From Flavobacteriales bacterium (GTDB taxonomy: Bacteria > Bacteroidota > Bacteroidia > Flavobacteriales > UBA7312): a DNA stretch of 64,000 bases. Below the pieces are notes generated by a model. It made no database searches and had not been told where the DNA came from. It saw nothing but the letters and a program-made list of their open reading frames with translations. The stretch is from NCBI GenBank assembly GCA_965661345.1, contig CBFIDK010000004.1, positions 7,503-71,502 of the forward strand, in the 5' to 3' direction. The translations under genes were made by a program, and so were the position numbers. Shown piece by piece: positions 4,339-20,572 of this stretch. Within the stretch, counting starts at the first letter, position 1, and every line of letters begins with the position of its first letter.

Positions 4339-4414
4339 AAAAAAGCGGAAAACAATCTCAAATTGAGATGGATTCCGCTTTGGTGGACCTAAGTGTCCTT
4401 ATTTCGAACTTTTT
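4339..4414 (-). repeat. tRNA-Val terminator/att-like repeat, copy R1 (outermost)
   Basis: AAAAAGCGGAAAACAATCTCAAATTGAGATGGATTCCGCTTTGGTGGACCTAAGTGTCCTTATTTCGAAC. This copy has no recombinase-3' relic on its left side. Confidence 0.85.
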
Positions 4415-4636
4415 CACATAACTTTAATTCTTAACAATTTCTTAAATCATGAGCTTGAAATTAACGAAAACCTAATGAATGCATAGCTTTAACCTTTGGT
4501 TAACTCAATATGTGCGCTTTATAGTTGCTCTACTATATTTTAAATAGTTTTATTCTATATTAGCTTTGTATATCTTGCTGAAATTATATCCCTTGTTGCT
4601 AAACATACTTTAATCTATTTTTTACGTTTTTTAATT

Positions 4637-4864
4637 ATGAAGAAAAAAGGCAGGCCATCAAGAAAAAAAAAGAAATTAAAAAATGGATACTATATGTCAA
4701 TTTGTAATTCTATTTCATCAAAACCTGTAAGAATAATGAGAGATACCTTTGAAGAAATGAAATTAGTTGAGGAAAAATTTAGAAATCGTGATTTTAAGTA
4801 TCTTGGTCAGGTCAGAGATAATAAATGGCTAGATGGAGAAAACAAAGGCAAGACAACTAATTGA
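4637..4864 (+). CDS. Hypothetical small basic protein
   Basis: 75-aa ORF only; lysine-rich N-terminus; no recognisable motif. Confidence 0.3.
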   Translation: MKKKGRPSRKKKKLKNGYYMSICNSISSKPVRIMRDTFEEMKLVEEKFRNRDFKYLGQVRDNKWLDGENKGKTTN

Positions 4865-4980
4865 TATTACCATTAAATAATAAATAATTAATTTTTTTGA
4901 ACAAAACCACTCAATTAAGTAGTTTTTTAAATCCTTGATTTATTTTCATATTTAACTGTTTGTAATAAATTTAGTTATAT

Positions 4981-5514
4981 TTGATAATCTTAAAAAAAAT
5001 TCAAAACATTCCATCATTAGATAAGTTGACTACTGCGCTATCTGAGGCAGATAAGGCTAGCTATTGTGATATATTACGTGCAATTAATTTTAGCCCTAAA
5101 GAACTTTCAAAATATTCTTCATGGTCTGAGGATTATTATACAAGAAACTGTATTCTAAATTGCGATAAGTTTGAATTAATACTCATATGCTGGTGTAGGA
5201 GCCATAAAACACCTATTCACGATCATGGAGGTGAAGAATGTTGGGTTAAGGTAATTAGCGGTCAGCTTGAAGAAGTCATTTATGGAAAGAATGAAAATGA
5301 CGAATTAACTGTTTTAAGAACATTAGTCTCAAAAAAAAATCAAGTTACTTATATGAAAGATTTTATGGGGTTTCATAGTTTAGAAAACACTTCAGATAAA
5401 AGATGTATGACGCTTCATTTGTATGCAAAACCCATTAGAAAATGCAATGTTTTTGATGAAGATTCAAAAACTTTCATAAATAAAGAAATGGTTTATCATA
5501 CAATACCAAATTAA
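4981..5514 (+). CDS. Cysteine dioxygenase type I-like cupin
   Basis: 177 aa. TPIHDHGGEECWVKVISGQLEEVIYG resembles the eukaryotic CDO core (IHDH...C.LK.L.G.L.E). Non-ATG (TTG) start in the track. Confidence 0.75.
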   Translation: MIILKKIQNIPSLDKLTTALSEADKASYCDILRAINFSPKELSKYSSWSEDYYTRNCILNCDKFELILICWCRSHKTPIHDHGGEECWVKVISGQLEEVIYGKNENDELTVLRTLVSKKNQVTYMKDFMGFHSLENTSDKRCMTLHLYAKPIRKCNVFDEDSKTFINKEMVYHTIPN

Positions 5515-5524
5515 AAATTAAACT

Positions 5525-17730: not shown

Positions 17731-17753
17731 AACTAATTGATTACTTTTGTTGT

Positions 17754-18671
17754 ATGAAGAAACTCAATATCAAAGATTTTAAGGACAATTTTAATCCAAA
17801 GAATAATAAATTAGAGGTTATCCGCGAGAGGGTGTTTTCTAAGACTCAGGTTGATGTTGTGTATTCTGATTTTACTAATTGGGAGCGTTATGGACTGATT
17901 GATATTAAACACAATGTGGGTAAAGGCGGACATAAAAAACTAAGCTATGTAGACTATGTCTGGCTTAGTATTATTAAAGAGTTAAGATCATTTGGATTTA
18001 CTTACGATCAAATCAAAAAATGTCAAACGGAACTTTTTAGGAATCTATTAAATCGTGATGATTTATCCTTAATTATAGAAAACAAGGACTATATCAATGC
18101 AAAAAGCAAAGGCAAGTTAGAGGGCTTAGAATATTTTGATAAAGATGCTATTGATAAGGTTAGTGGTGAGCTGTTCTTTATAGAGGCAATGATATTGAAT
18201 GTATTGCAATTTGGTGAGAGTACCATATTCCAATTTTTCAAATCGGACCCTGTAAGAGTTAGTGTGATGAGCGTTAATATAATAAGGGATTTTAATGAGA
18301 TGGGTGCTAGTGAATTAATTAGTCAGCTTGCTCAAAGTAGTCATGTTAATATTTCACTATCTAATATTATATCGAAGTTCTTAGTCGATGGTGAGGAGTC
18401 ATTTGAGTCTAATGTCAGTAATCTCATTAGTGAAAAAGAACATGAAATACTAAAAGCTATTAGACACAATTTCCATGAGCTTAAATCCATTACGGTTCGC
18501 TTTGATGGTAAAGCCGAGCCCTGTTTAATGGAAATTAAGAGTATGAAAAAAGTAAAGGTCGAATCACGACTACTTGAGCTTATTAATAAAGGAGAATACG
18601 CTGATATTGAAATCAAAACAGTTGATGGTAGAATAAGCCATTATGAAAAGGTCAAGAAAGTAAAACTATAA
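17754..18671 (+). CDS. Hypothetical protein with N-terminal MerR-like HTH
   Basis: 305 aa. FSKTQVDVVYSDFTNWERYGLID...KLSYVDYVWLSIIKELRSFGFTYDQIKK resembles MerR-type HTH plus wing. Confidence 0.55.
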   Translation: MKKLNIKDFKDNFNPKNNKLEVIRERVFSKTQVDVVYSDFTNWERYGLIDIKHNVGKGGHKKLSYVDYVWLSIIKELRSFGFTYDQIKKCQTELFRNLLNRDDLSLIIENKDYINAKSKGKLEGLEYFDKDAIDKVSGELFFIEAMILNVLQFGESTIFQFFKSDPVRVSVMSVNIIRDFNEMGASELISQLAQSSHVNISLSNIISKFLVDGEESFESNVSNLISEKEHEILKAIRHNFHELKSITVRFDGKAEPCLMEIKSMKKVKVESRLLELINKGEYADIEIKTVDGRISHYEKVKKVKL

Positions 18672-18746
18672 TACCGAACACATCGGATTAAAGGTTACAT
18701 AGTAAGCCTATTGAACACATCAAAGGTGATGCACAACATGTAAGTT

Positions 18747-18941
18747 GTGAGTTTAAATCAAATAAAGAAAGACTTAGTGCTATCACTAAGCAAACAAAAA
18801 AATGAAAAGGGTGAGCAGTTAACTAAAGAGCAGTGTCAGCTTATTATTGATGAGCTAGCTATTTTCTCAAATCTCATTGTAGAGTATATCATCACCCATG
18901 AAAGTATTAATCTAAACAGTGAACAAGATGAAGAAAATTGA
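18747..18941 (+). CDS. Small acidic hypothetical protein (possible directionality factor; speculative)
   Basis: 64-aa ORF with a GTG start, overlapping the recombinase start. Confidence 0.3.
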   Translation: MSLNQIKKDLVLSLSKQKNEKGEQLTKEQCQLIIDELAIFSNLIVEYIITHESINLNSEQDEEN

Positions 18942-20538
18942 TCCTTATTTCCAAAAGTTAGCAAATAGCTACTCAAATGATAATCACACCACTTCTAATA
19001 AAGCGGTTATCTATACAAGAGTATCAACAAAAGAACAAGCCGAGAATAACGCTTCACTACAAACCCAAAAGAAATACTGTCAAGACTTTGCTAAAAAGAA
19101 AGGGCTTATTGTTCTGGACTATTTTGGCGGCACCTTTGAGTCTGCCAAGAGTGATGAGCGAAAAGAGTTTCAGCGCATGCTATCTTATGTTAAACGCAAT
19201 AAGGAGGTAGATACCATAATAGTATACTCCTATGACCGTTTTTCAAGAACAGGACCCAATGGAGCCTACATTAGTCAGCAGTTACTTAAAAATGGAGTGA
19301 AGACTCTATCAGCAACACAAGAGGTAGATCCCCTTTCTCCCTCGGGTAGCTTTCAACAAAACCTTTACTATATGTTCTCTCAGTTTGATAATGAACTAAG
19401 AAAAGACAAATCAGTAACGGGGATGAAAGAAAGACTTAGAGAAGGTTATTGGCTATCAAAACTACCACGAGGCTATAGCAATGATAATAAGGGTAAGAAA
19501 AGTAATATTCAACACTTATATATCAATAATGAAGGAAGACTGATCAAAAGAGCCTTTATGTGGAAATTACAAGGAAAGAGAAACATTGATATTGCAACTA
19601 AGCTACAAAGAGCAGGTATGGAAATAAAGCACAAGAGATTGAATAATATTTTCACTAATCCTTTTTACTGCGGTAAAATCATCAATAAACTCATTCCAGG
19701 TGAAGTGATTGAGGGTAAACACCCAAAGCTTGTAAGTGAAAAAGATTGGCTGAAAGTAAATAATGTAGTGACCAATAATCATCGCTTACAAACAAAGAAT
19801 ACTAATCTTGAGCATATACCACTAAAAGTATTTATGAAATGTGAAAAGACAGGTGATCCACTAACAGGCTATCTTGTCAAGAAAAAGGGAATATGGTATT
19901 ATAAGTCAAGAAGTAAAGGAACAAAGTTAAATGTCAACGCTAATAAGCTGAATAACACATTTGCCGAGCATTTAAAAAACTACGAACTAAGAGATGGATT
20001 AGAAAAACCATTTAAACAATTAGTGACATATGCTTTTAGTAAATACCATTCTAATAAACACTTTGATTTGAAGCAATTGTCAGCTCAAAAGAAAAAGGTA
20101 GAAGATCAGCTTGAGAAATTAGAAGAGCGATTTGCAATTGGTGAAATAGGTCAAGATTTATACCAAAAATACACTCAAAAATTTGGTGATGAGCAGACTG
20201 AAATTGAGCAAAAAATAGACTTTGGGCAAAACGGCAGTTCGAACCTTGAAAAGGTCACCAATGAAGCCATAAAAGTATCGAAAAATCTATCCTCTACATG
20301 GTTAGATATGTCATATGATCAAAAATATGAACTTCAACAATTTGTGTTTCCCAAAGGGGCAACTTATAACAAGGAAAATAACCGAGTTCGAACTCCTGAA
20401 ACACATTTATTATTTGAGCTAACTAAAAGAACCACAGGACTTTGTGAGAATAAAAAAAGCGGAACACTGTCTCAAAATGAGATGGATTCCGCTTTGGTGG
20501 GCAATGAGGGACTCGAACCCCCGACTTCCTCCTTGTAA
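18919..20538 (+). CDS. Large serine recombinase (resolvase/invertase N-terminal catalytic domain + recombinase domain + coiled coil)
   Basis: 539 aa. AVIYTRVSTKEQ catalytic-serine motif, ...IIVYSYDRFSRTG, later coiled coil KKKVEDQLEKLEERFAIGEI. The ORF continues through repeat R5 into tRNA-Val antisense. Confidence 0.9.
   Translation: MNKMKKIDPYFQKLANSYSNDNHTTSNKAVIYTRVSTKEQAENNASLQTQKKYCQDFAKKKGLIVLDYFGGTFESAKSDERKEFQRMLSYVKRNKEVDTIIVYSYDRFSRTGPNGAYISQQLLKNGVKTLSATQEVDPLSPSGSFQQNLYYMFSQFDNELRKDKSVTGMKERLREGYWLSKLPRGYSNDNKGKKSNIQHLYINNEGRLIKRAFMWKLQGKRNIDIATKLQRAGMEIKHKRLNNIFTNPFYCGKIINKLIPGEVIEGKHPKLVSEKDWLKVNNVVTNNHRLQTKNTNLEHIPLKVFMKCEKTGDPLTGYLVKKKGIWYYKSRSKGTKLNVNANKLNNTFAEHLKNYELRDGLEKPFKQLVTYAFSKYHSNKHFDLKQLSAQKKKVEDQLEKLEERFAIGEIGQDLYQKYTQKFGDEQTEIEQKIDFGQNGSSNLEKVTNEAIKVSKNLSSTWLDMSYDQKYELQQFVFPKGATYNKENNRVRTPETHLLFELTKRTTGLCENKKSGTLSQNEMDSALVGNEGLEPPTSSL
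20440..20500 (-). repeat. tRNA-Val terminator/att-like repeat, copy R5 (functional terminator + CCACCA of the tRNA)
   Basis: CTTTGTGAGAATAAAAAAAGCGGAACACTGTCTCAAAATGAGATGGATTCCGCTTTGGTGG. Minus-strand reading gives a hairpin followed by TTTTTTT. Confidence 0.9.
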
Positions 20539-20572
20539 GGGAGGCACTCTGAACCAACTGAGTTAATCGCCC
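20495..20572 (-). tRNA. tRNA-Val (anticodon TAC), CCA encoded
   Basis: GGGCGATTAACTCAGTTGGTTCAGAGTGCCTCCCTTACAAGGAGGAAGTCGGGGGTTCGAGTCCCTCATTGCCCACCA folds by hand into a cloverleaf: acceptor GGGCGAT/ATTGCCC, D stem ACTC/GAGT, anticodon stem CCTCC/GGAGG with loop CTTACAA, T stem GGGGG/CCCTC. Confidence 0.9.

Follow-up and report, generated by a model that had tools for sequence, protein, structure and literature searches.

In a 64-kb stretch of DNA from a Flavobacteriales bacterium (GenBank assembly GCA_965661345.1, contig CBFIDK010000004.1, positions 7,503 to 71,502, hereafter the window), the 3′ end of a tRNA-Val(TAC) gene is occupied by a tandem array of four cargo units (4387-17038) and one recombinase unit (17039-20500). 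We consider it probable that the array arose through site-specific recombination into the tRNA-Val 3′ end and that the enzyme is a large serine recombinase (LSR), encoded in the last unit, which belongs to a Bacteroidota-wide family targeting tRNA and transfer-messenger RNA (tmRNA) genes.

Organization of the array

A repeat search of the window identified five co-oriented direct copies of a hairpin of the form GCGGAA...TTCCGC followed by TTTGGTGG, at 4345-4386, 8537-8578, 12674-12715, 16997-17038 and 20459-20500, that is, with start-to-start distances of 4192, 4137, 4323 and 3462 bp. The same search gave a stub-only match at 9042-9084, and this is a sixth boundary, in which a hairpin of a second, degenerate type and TTTTGTGG (9042-9049) are followed by the stub. 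Two kinds of stub were distinguished. Stub A (GGACCTAAGYGTCYTTATTTCGAAC, also written GGACCTAAGYGTCCTTATTTCGAAC) is a 25-nt site with which the recombinase-less cassettes begin and stands to the right of the first three hairpin copies; stub B (TCAATAAGTTTTTTCGAATTAAC) stands to the right of the fourth, and to the right of the fifth lies the tRNA gene itself, whose sequence TGGTGG GCAATGAGGGACTCGAACC represents the chromosomal half-site (B′). Pattern searches of the window returned the hairpin five times and stub A four times, in a single orientation and all within 4.3-20.5 kb, with no copy outside the array and with 0 matches expected from a shuffled-sequence control. The second tRNA gene of the window, a tRNA-Met (49547-49620), has neither the TGGTGG sequence nor an array. 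A composition check showed no contrast in GC content between cassettes and flanks.

The locus had previously been described, in a first-pass annotation made from the window alone, as a stack of islets bounded by copies of a tRNA-derived unit. The spacings reported there were reproduced exactly, and the positions of the copies deviate by no more than a few bases; the stub sequences given there are right and the tRNA-Val(TAC) placed at the last copy is intact. The copy near 9042 that was regarded as degenerate is real, yet it is a full boundary, so that the second interval consists of two units, 8579-9049 and 9050-12715. The gene calls of the three cargo sets are broadly confirmed by Pfam, whereas the cassettes are four and not three (4.2, 0.47, 3.7 and 4.3 kb). 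The recombinase, given as 539 aa, is an existing open reading frame (ORF), but the ATG at 18928 gives 536 aa and the stop codon lies beyond the element. The statement that the enzyme is a serine and not a tyrosine recombinase agrees with our searches, in which the LSR was the sole recombinase and no ORF of at least 80 aa between 2.2 and 21.8 kb matched Phage_integrase.

Hairpin, core and half-sites

The LSR of the window has close relatives at other tRNA genes (loci are given with the prefix L). The LSR of L012, 97% identical, adjoins tRNA-Ala(GGC) in an unrelated gene context, that of L014 (93% identical) adjoins tRNA-Met and that of L016 (73% identical) a tmRNA-like end, and the junctions at these three loci read ...GAGATGGATTCCGCTTTGGTGG followed by tRNA-specific sequence; in L013 the hairpin and TTTGGTGG stand at tRNA-Val, as in the window. 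Because one hairpin is found beside tRNA-Val, tRNA-Ala, tRNA-Met and a tmRNA-like end, it must have been delivered by the element. The terminator hairpin is hence carried by the mobile element, within the 3′ end of the LSR gene, and is not the tRNA's own, as had been assumed before.

Junctions which share only their left or only their right side switch within TTTGGTGG, and this comparison indicates that the exchange is confined to the 8-bp core. On the tRNA strand the core reads CCACCAAA and is made up of the last acceptor-stem bases, the discriminator and CCA. The tRNAs used by the subclade of the window LSR all begin with TGGTGG on the array strand, corresponding to CCA, a discriminator A and two acceptor-stem C's. 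The duplicated part of the tRNA amounts to only 6-8 bp, with TGGTGG as the sole stretch common to boundary and tRNA. Both stubs depart from the sequence of tRNA-Val, and arrays at tRNA-Val, tRNA-Ala and tRNA-Phe have the same stub A. The stubs with CCACCA and terminator that had been noticed earlier are present, but they are half-sites of the element side, stub A belonging to the cassettes and stub B to the LSR element. The two stubs have TAAG...TTTTTCGAA in common and differ by a 4-nt insertion/deletion and several substitutions. TCGAAC lies 17 nt from TGGTGG in stub A but 12 nt from it in the tRNA, and the resulting difference of 5 bp is like the geometry of phage-type serine integrases, in which attP and attB half-sites reportedly differ by a shift of 5 bp.

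Stub A contains, directly after TGGT, the palindrome GGAC-N6-GTCC (4385-4398 and all other copies), which is not found in stub B. Its loop is variable, and its stem variants mostly pair or give G.T, not A.C (GGAT/ATCC, GGGC/GTCC), in counts that are few and subject to the bias of the search pattern, so that they speak only weakly for a structural role.

The large serine recombinase and its family

The LSR carries a Resolvase domain (PF00239, E = 4e-25, residues 29-177) and a Recombinase domain (PF07508, E = 2.5e-11), and the motif YTRVSTKEQ is invariant in the alignment of its homologues (A2). It matches the catalytic domain of TP901-1 integrase (3bvp; phmmer, E = 3e-13) and the PHROGs family phrog_95 'integrase' (E = 5e-65). 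Its AlphaFold model shows a beta-ribbon (residues 303-337) and two long helices that pair in antiparallel fashion (359-433), and over its full length it was matched by Foldseek to 9dxd, 9dxh, 9y66, Bxb1 (9iu2) and LI integrase (4kis), with a probability of 1.0; phiC31 integrase was matched with the same probability. The predicted architecture is that of a serine integrase, with catalytic and C-terminal domains and a coiled-coil-like insertion. The zinc-ribbon PF13408 was not detected in the window LSR, which has one of the usual zinc-binding cysteines only. In columns ~310-335 of the alignment most flavobacterial members, including the window LSR, are without three or four of the zinc-ribbon cysteines, which are retained in a few members of the family (e.g., P0013 and P0069). 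An exact-protein look-up of the window LSR returned no record.

The LSR ORF has no stop codon within the element; it continues across the hairpin and takes in 38 nt of the antisense tRNA strand. The read-through part, residues 508-536, is predicted to be disordered. As LSR transcripts that end at the hairpin would have no stop codon, integrase levels in the integrated state might be limited. In a circular form, the ORF would reach a stop after 10 codons of stub B. One copy of the 10-mer GAGATGGATT lies in the hairpin (20479-20488) and another within the LSR gene (19991-20000), and in L146 (4440-4470, with stub A set on the + strand) a deletion between two copies of the GAGATGGATT type took the first 355 LSR codons.

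More than 1357 homologues of the LSR were found at E <= 1e-20, mostly in marine Flavobacteriia, and a genome scan with one genome per species gave at least 597 relatives from several Bacteroidota orders, the 80 best loci of which were used for locus analysis. In 67 of these 80 the 3′ end of the LSR gene is overlapped by a convergent tRNA gene (Arg 42, Leu 14, Met 8, Val 2, Lys 1), and the remaining 13 comprise five tmRNA 3′ ends, one tRNA cut by the contig end, two tRNA fragments and five stub-like sequences, giving a total of 75 loci that adjoin a tRNA- or tmRNA-derived 3′ end. The position of recombinase homologues, which the first-pass annotation had proposed to look at, thus supports its core interpretation. 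At L016, L027, L041, L059 and L076 the tmRNA (ssrA)-like 3′ ends lie ~100 nt past the LSR match and read TGGTGGAG.CGG.GGGATTCGAACCC.CGTCCAAACAAG.

In each of the 25 homologues aligned, whose identity to the window LSR is 43-74%, the C-terminus follows the pattern ...KK.G......S.LV...G[LFI]EP.T..., and this shared tail is the translation of an A-tract, the hairpin and the reverse-complemented acceptor and T-arm of the tRNA. Each LSR gene has its own hairpin directly before the tRNA; in another LSR clade, one hairpin is found beside tRNA-Leu-taa, tRNA-Leu-caa and tRNA-Arg-tct. By their sequence context, tRNA and tmRNA 3′ ends are the natural targets of this Bacteroidota-wide family. A direct repeat of the hairpin upstream of the LSR was found, among the other 80 loci, only in the close relatives L013 and L014, and pairwise BLAST between loci with the same LSR type at different tRNAs gave limits of homology inside coding genes and no clean left ends.

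A phage origin of the family was considered and rejected, as only six distant LSR relatives (30-41% identical) were found in 2.9 million viral contigs and the stub A pattern was absent there.

Strain comparison at the tRNA-Val locus

Relatives of the locus were found by protein look-ups, which led from the Mur ligase to L001-L010 and from the 305-aa protein of the LSR element to L221. Contigs that encode an identical Mur ligase match the window at 99.7% identity as far as tRNA-Val, and there the tRNA is followed not by the unit of the window but by a beta-lactamase-family cassette with a CCCACTC-type hairpin. The far edge of this L001-type cassette is formed by hairpin, TTTGGTGG and stub A, beyond which lies sequence absent from the window. 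In L221, the response-regulator flank with the R1-type hairpin (90% identical) is joined at TTTGGTGG directly to stub B; the LSR element that follows is 95.7% identical to that of the window, and the 12.65 kb of cassettes are missing. Repeated site-specific integration at the tRNA 3′ end, which had been proposed from the window, is therefore supported by presence and absence among strains and by replacement exactly at TTTGGTGG.

The order of the units can also be compared. The beta-lactamase-family cassette (protein 99.5-100% identical) is the last before the tRNA in L180 and L001 and is internal in L121, where a stub A cassette comes after it. This is the order predicted by insertion on the tRNA side, and it speaks for the earlier suggestion that newer units stand beside the tRNA. 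In L014, the last 460 bp of cassette 4 are found together with the LSR element at tRNA-Met, an arrangement compatible with the movement of multi-unit blocks. For variation on the left side, an exact-protein look-up of the response regulator returned one contig only, arranged as the window.

Stub A cassettes in marine metagenomes

A scan of JGI and TARA metagenomes with the exact stub A pattern gave at least 120 contigs, and the counts that follow are from those 120. A profile search found 221 stub A boundaries in them, 220 of which are co-oriented; the 80 genomic loci, which belong to other LSR clades, gave no such boundary. The complete units (n = 118) range from 66 to 6604 bp with a median of 1.17 kb, and many are of 0.3-1.5 kb with a single gene; the islet size of ~4 kb suggested by the window is hence not typical, cassettes being usually of ~1 kb. 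Array ends were found at tRNA-Val-tac, tRNA-Val-gac, tRNA-Ala-ggc and tRNA-Phe-gaa, all starting with TGGTGG on the array strand, and arrays and LSR elements at several tRNAs disagree with the idea that one tRNA only is targeted. Among recurring cassette starts, 17 of 26 have more than one kind of upstream neighbor, and the start of cassette 2 of the window is also found after other cassettes in L135 and L183.

Stub A is almost unchanged over more than 100 unrelated cargos, beside variable left arms. Among 122 distinct left arms, 53 have a hairpin of the GCGGAA type and 44 one of the CCCAC type, while the other 25 are of neither type and in some cases lack a hairpin; all that the arms have in common is a T-rich run and GGTGG. 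LSR elements begin with stub B in every case. Many cassette hairpins are preceded by remnants of the LSR 3′ end, of 15-169 codons, as seen in the window at the right end of cassette 3 (from 12622, before the hairpin; aa 493-524, 75% identical) and in cassette 4 (from 16964, left of the hairpin), and these remnants link the cassettes historically to LSR elements. In 44 cassettes a CCCAC-type hairpin comes straight after the cassette's own stop codon and there is no LSR remnant. Judging from these sequences, the recombinase-less cassettes seem to constitute a distinct and very abundant non-autonomous class with its own half-site, stub A, and not just decayed versions of the recombinase element.

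The last gene of many stub A cassettes has a tail of ~60 residues like that of the L001 beta-lactamase-family protein (L001 9633-10826; ...YIYDDGSVEKRVILE), which is followed by a CCCACTC-type hairpin. Such tails were seen in L107, L110, L119, L121, L130, L136, L141, L156, L157, L160, L171, L187-L189, L201 and others, and we suspect them to be a putative type IX secretion sorting domain or secretion signal. Tail and hairpin would thus form a common 3′ module, which may make it easier for new genes to become cassettes.

Proposed mechanism and alternative explanations

Each unit consists, in this order, of the right-hand half-site (stub), the cargo, the terminator hairpin and TTTGGTGG, and in the mechanism that we propose the LSR would recombine a stub-type site with a tRNA-type site inside the 8-bp core. 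As the comparison of junctions shows, the hairpin of the incoming unit becomes the new terminator of the tRNA, and its stub ends up beside the hairpin of the previous unit, so that each internal boundary is made of hairpin, TTTGGTGG and stub; new units come in next to the tRNA, and older ones are displaced outward. Given the nearly free left arm, with many unrelated hairpins and sometimes none, recognition by the LSR is probably directed mainly at the core and at the half-site to its right, in a stub or a tRNA; the left arm would be largely irrelevant to recognition and the hairpin would be kept for its terminator function. Integration would again yield one stub-type and one tRNA-type site, which would make repeated insertion at an occupied tRNA possible. 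Any stub could likewise recombine with the tRNA site, with excision of the intervening block and without a directionality factor, and the excised block could re-insert at another suitable tRNA. The stub A cassettes would be non-autonomous and, as their sequences lead us to infer, mobilized in trans by the LSR. A more tentative proposal, somewhat less likely than not, is that of an integron-like cassette platform made of an LSR and a tRNA gene, in which a half-site-plus-core enzyme may capture, stack, block-excise and redistribute, among tRNA 3′ ends, hundreds of small cassettes of marine Flavobacteriales that lack a recombinase and bring along a 25-nt half-site and a terminator of their own; integration would then be reversible by its nature.

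Several points weigh against this mechanism. An intact LSR was found in 0 of the 118 complete stub A units and no LSR element begins with stub A, so that an action of the LSR on stub A is read from their co-occurrence and sequence relatedness. Neither a circular junction nor an unoccupied tRNA-Val gene with its native terminator was found. Canonical LSRs recombine attP with attB only and use two specific half-sites per site, and an insertion beside the left arm of another element departs from this rule. The shift of TCGAA in stub B, the own site of the autonomous element, is only 1 nt, for which the model gives no explanation. The cassette-4-like left end in L014 coincides with the contig end, and contigs of metagenome-assembled genomes may be chimeric. 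Finally, boundaries share up to ~75 nt, so homologous recombination could yield part of the shuffling and a deletion of the L221 type.

This last point belongs to the alternative that survives best, according to which the array was seeded by an LSR but its islets are inert relics of LSR elements, their order varying through RecA-dependent homologous recombination, deletion or allelic replacement after DNA uptake, with no mobilization in trans. The LSR remnants of 15 to 169 aa upstream of many boundaries fit such a history, as do the L146 LSR, truncated by deletion between copies of a 10-nt repeat, the truncated metallo-beta-lactamase (MBL)-fold gene in cassette 4 (16243-16674), the lack of an intact LSR in the complete units and a boundary identity of ~50-75 nt, which is enough for homologous recombination. 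Decay would not be expected, however, to leave stub A nearly invariant across more than 100 unrelated cargos with left arms free, which suggests selection on a site; many units are of single-gene size (0.3-1.5 kb), the 44 cassettes with a CCCAC-type hairpin right after their own stop codon carry no LSR remnant, and stub A cassettes stand at four tRNAs in flanks without homology, which requires site-specific insertion. We therefore regard the relic explanation as unlikely, while still giving it some weight.

Much less probable is that the stub A cassettes are moved by an enzyme encoded elsewhere, either a second recombinase or a hijacked host recombinase (cf. XerCD at dif), with the LSR element as a co-tenant of the hotspot. 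No cassette encodes a recombinase, the two stubs differ by the 4-nt indel and several substitutions, and only stub A has the GGAC-N6-GTCC palindrome, all of which would be in keeping with a separate enzyme. Cassettes and LSR elements nevertheless have the core TTTGGTGG, the orientation and the tRNA types in common, the hairpin of the LSR tail is found in many cassettes, and there is no other recombinase in the window between 4 and 21 kb, the metagenome loci having been screened for the LSR module only. That the repeat is a generic terminator or a unit like repetitive extragenic palindromes (REP), or the footprint of a tyrosine-integrase tRNA island, unlinked to the LSR, is hardly credible: the unit does resemble a bidirectional rho-independent terminator, and tRNA-linked islands usually come from tyrosine integrases (PMC7192596), but the repeat is not dispersed as the first-pass annotation had asked, its window copies being confined to the array and its metagenome copies co-oriented (220/221) in arrays which, where they end within contigs, end at a tRNA, while the hairpin and core lie physically inside the LSR ORF and the region has no tyrosine recombinase.

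Gene content of the array and other features of the window

The features of the array are collected in Table 1. Cargo genes lie on both strands and several cassettes have their own regulators.

Table 1. Position and content of the array units and adjoining genes, in window coordinates.
Feature	Position	Strand	Description
Response-regulator gene	3586-4251	minus	promoter region adjoins R1
Boundary R1	4345-4386		left array edge; hairpin 4345-4378, core TTTGGTGG 4379-4386
Cassette 1	4387-8578	+	4.19 kb; stub A 4385-4409; at end hairpin 8537-8570 and core 8571-8578
Cassette 1, cysteine dioxygenase	4981-5514		Pfam
Cassette 1, pyridoxal phosphate-dependent decarboxylase	5525-6922		Pfam
Cassette 1, Na+/solute symporter	6954-8486		Pfam
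Cassette 2	8579-9049	+	0.47 kb; stub A 8577-8601; at end CCCACTC-type degenerate hairpin and TTTTGTGG 9042-9049
Cassette 2, 126-aa ORF	8606-8986	minus	
Cassette 3	9050-12715	+	3.67 kb; stub A 9048-9072; hairpin 12674-12707, core 12708-12715
Cassette 3, alpha/beta hydrolase, SRPBCC-like protein, AraC regulator, MBL-fold hydrolase			Pfam
Cassette 4	12716-17038	+	4.32 kb; stub A 12714-12738; hairpin 16997-17030, core 17031-17038
Cassette 4, TetR regulator, short-chain dehydrogenase/reductase (SDR), NAD(P)-binding protein			Pfam
Cassette 4, truncated MBL-fold gene	16243-16674		
Autonomous LSR element	17039-20500	+	3.46 kb; stub B 17039-17061 (TCAATAAGTTTTTTCGAATTAAC); hairpin 20459-20492, core 20493-20500
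LSR element, 158-aa protein	17057-17533	minus	homologue weakly NikA-like
LSR element, 305-aa protein	17754-18671		weak MerR-like helix-turn-helix
LSR element, 64-aa ORF	18747-18941		
LSR element, large serine recombinase, 536 aa	18928-20538	+	Resolvase and Recombinase domains
tRNA-Val(TAC)	20495-20572	minus	complete; Rfam 68 bits, model positions 1-71

The four-gene module of the LSR element is also present in L013-L016, L117, L182, L213 and L221-L223. Its proteins gave no replication-gene match in Pfam or PHROGs, and the 158-aa and 64-aa proteins no significant match of any kind in these two collections. For the 305-aa protein, whose AlphaFold model has a mean predicted confidence (pLDDT) of 69, Foldseek returned only non-significant matches to N-terminal domains of the MerR family. 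Two direct copies of GTATACTTAGGTAGAC lie at 17566-17606, between the divergent genes of the 158-aa and 305-aa proteins, and this pair is a candidate operator for a DNA-binding protein of the element.

The ORF at 16243-16674 in cassette 4 has at its end an incomplete copy of the N-terminal region of the MBL-fold hydrolase that cassette 3 encodes (11475-12587; 48-nt repeat, 73% identical), which points to a deletion at the right end of the cassette. A sequence of 53-58 nt in the same cassette (16733-16785) recurs ~30 kb off at 46308-46365 and 47612-47664 with 86-92% identity, and it has no relation to the boundary repeat.

Outside the array, the window contains a second strain-variable insertion, of a different kind. 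The strain of L001, 99.7% identical elsewhere, lacks this 3.0-kb insertion (27422-30863). The insertion has a direct repeat of 209 nt on its two sides (27422-27630 and 30655-30863, 90% identical) and comprises three ORFs on the minus strand (28129-28593, 28541-29728 and 29725-30201) without Pfam match. A SAM-II riboswitch (55192-55249, minus strand; Rfam 55.6 bits) was found upstream of the S-adenosylmethionine synthetase gene (53864-55153).

Comparison with known systems

In staphylococcal cassette chromosomes (SCC, SCCmec), the Ccr LSRs act at the 3′ end of rlmH/orfX without inactivating the gene; the elements accumulate in tandem with a short core copy at each boundary, recombinase-less neighbors are thought to be moved in trans and no dedicated directionality factor is known to be needed. 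The SCC system is the closest functional analogue of the array, with which it shares an LSR, a conserved gene 3′ end, tandem composites and recombinase-less passengers. The array differs in its targets, which are tRNA and tmRNA genes and among these several tRNAs, in the terminator supplied by the unit and in a recombinase ORF that crosses the attachment site. It has moreover a single LSR, apparently unrelated in detail to CcrAB/CcrC, the nearest solved structures being of the phage type; its cassettes are far smaller (median 1.2 kb) and more numerous, and its hosts are marine Bacteroidota.

The resemblance to integrons lies in the co-oriented arrays of small, mostly one-gene and recombinase-less cassettes, each bounded by a conserved site, in the entry at one fixed end next to a platform and in a cassette order that is shuffled among strains. 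In contrast to integrons, the array lacks the tyrosine recombinase IntI, an attI/Pc platform and the bottom-strand hairpin signature of attC; its platform is the tRNA gene, its recombinase is itself a mobile unit and its cargo lies on both strands, with several cassettes carrying their own regulators. Tycheposons of Prochlorococcus are likewise marine, cargo-bearing and tRNA-integrated, with successive insertions that push older ones inward and with common degenerate remnants, but they have a deep-branching tyrosine recombinase, replication genes (primase/helicase) and flanking partial tRNA copies, whereas here we find an LSR, no replication module and mostly single-gene cassettes with a conserved 25-nt site. 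In a collection of tycheposons and cryptic elements, 27 of the 937 integrase-carrying elements have a large serine recombinase (bioRxiv 10.1101/2020.12.28.424599).

Insertion at the 3′ end of a gene or tRNA, tandem accretion and non-autonomous members are also known from integrative and conjugative elements and cis-mobilizable elements (ICE/CIME, as in ICESt3) and from NBU1 (Bacteroides, tRNA-Leu), yet these have tyrosine integrases, direct repeats of tens of bp and conjugation or mobilization genes. Unlike classical tRNA islands, the array has no tRNA-proximal tyrosine integrase and no copy of tens of bp of the tRNA 3′ end at its far end. Phage-type serine integrases (phiC31, Bxb1, A118/LI, TP901-1) resemble the LSR in domain architecture, predicted fold and the position of the integrase gene beside the attachment site; they use two specific half-sites, a strict attP x attB reaction and a directionality factor, whereas here the left arm is nearly free, integration would occur at occupied sites and the zinc-ribbon cysteines are largely lost. 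To our knowledge, none of them targets tRNA genes. The array also differs from REP sequences, since its copies are confined to the array in the window, are co-oriented in metagenomes and belong to arrays ending at tRNAs.

In a 2020 survey of integrative genetic elements from 2168 complete genomes, tRNA/tmRNA genes were used by 44.5% of tyrosine-integrase elements vs. 4.9% of serine-integrase elements, and the use of such genes by serine integrases (14 of 297 cases) was described as previously unreported and in need of proof (PMC7192596). A review states that non-autonomous elements keep attachment sites and use the integrase of a neighbor, and that the known mobilizable elements with serine recombinases insert within genes and disrupt them (PMC5704250). 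The main paper on LSR discovery makes no mention of tRNA, and the tRNA-Arg island of Riemerella has a tyrosine integrase. A search of the full-text literature returned no description of tRNA-targeting serine integrases in Bacteroidota nor of stub A cassettes, in agreement with the earlier surmise that the element type may be undescribed.

Significance

Integration into tRNA genes has so far been treated as a trait of tyrosine integrases, and, if our reading is true, a large clade of serine integrases would do so systematically. Its members have the unusual set-up of an integrase ORF that crosses its own attachment site and gives the tRNA a new terminator. On the more tentative reading as a cassette platform, this LSR family would be the first recognized serine-integrase clade dedicated to tRNA/tmRNA genes. 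There is a substantial chance that the array merits the name of a distinct cassette platform. Serine integrases are valued as tools for genome engineering, and a family of enzymes able to recognize the highly conserved 3′ ends of tRNAs while the second half-site is almost free would have practical appeal in this field.

For the marine hosts, the finding would imply a very abundant class of single-gene cassettes in ocean metagenomes (TARA, JGI) that had previously gone unnoticed. The cargos seen include genes of cysteine/taurine-type metabolism, hydrolases and regulators, and stub A cassettes could be the origin of some of the flexible genes that streamlined marine flavobacteria carry.

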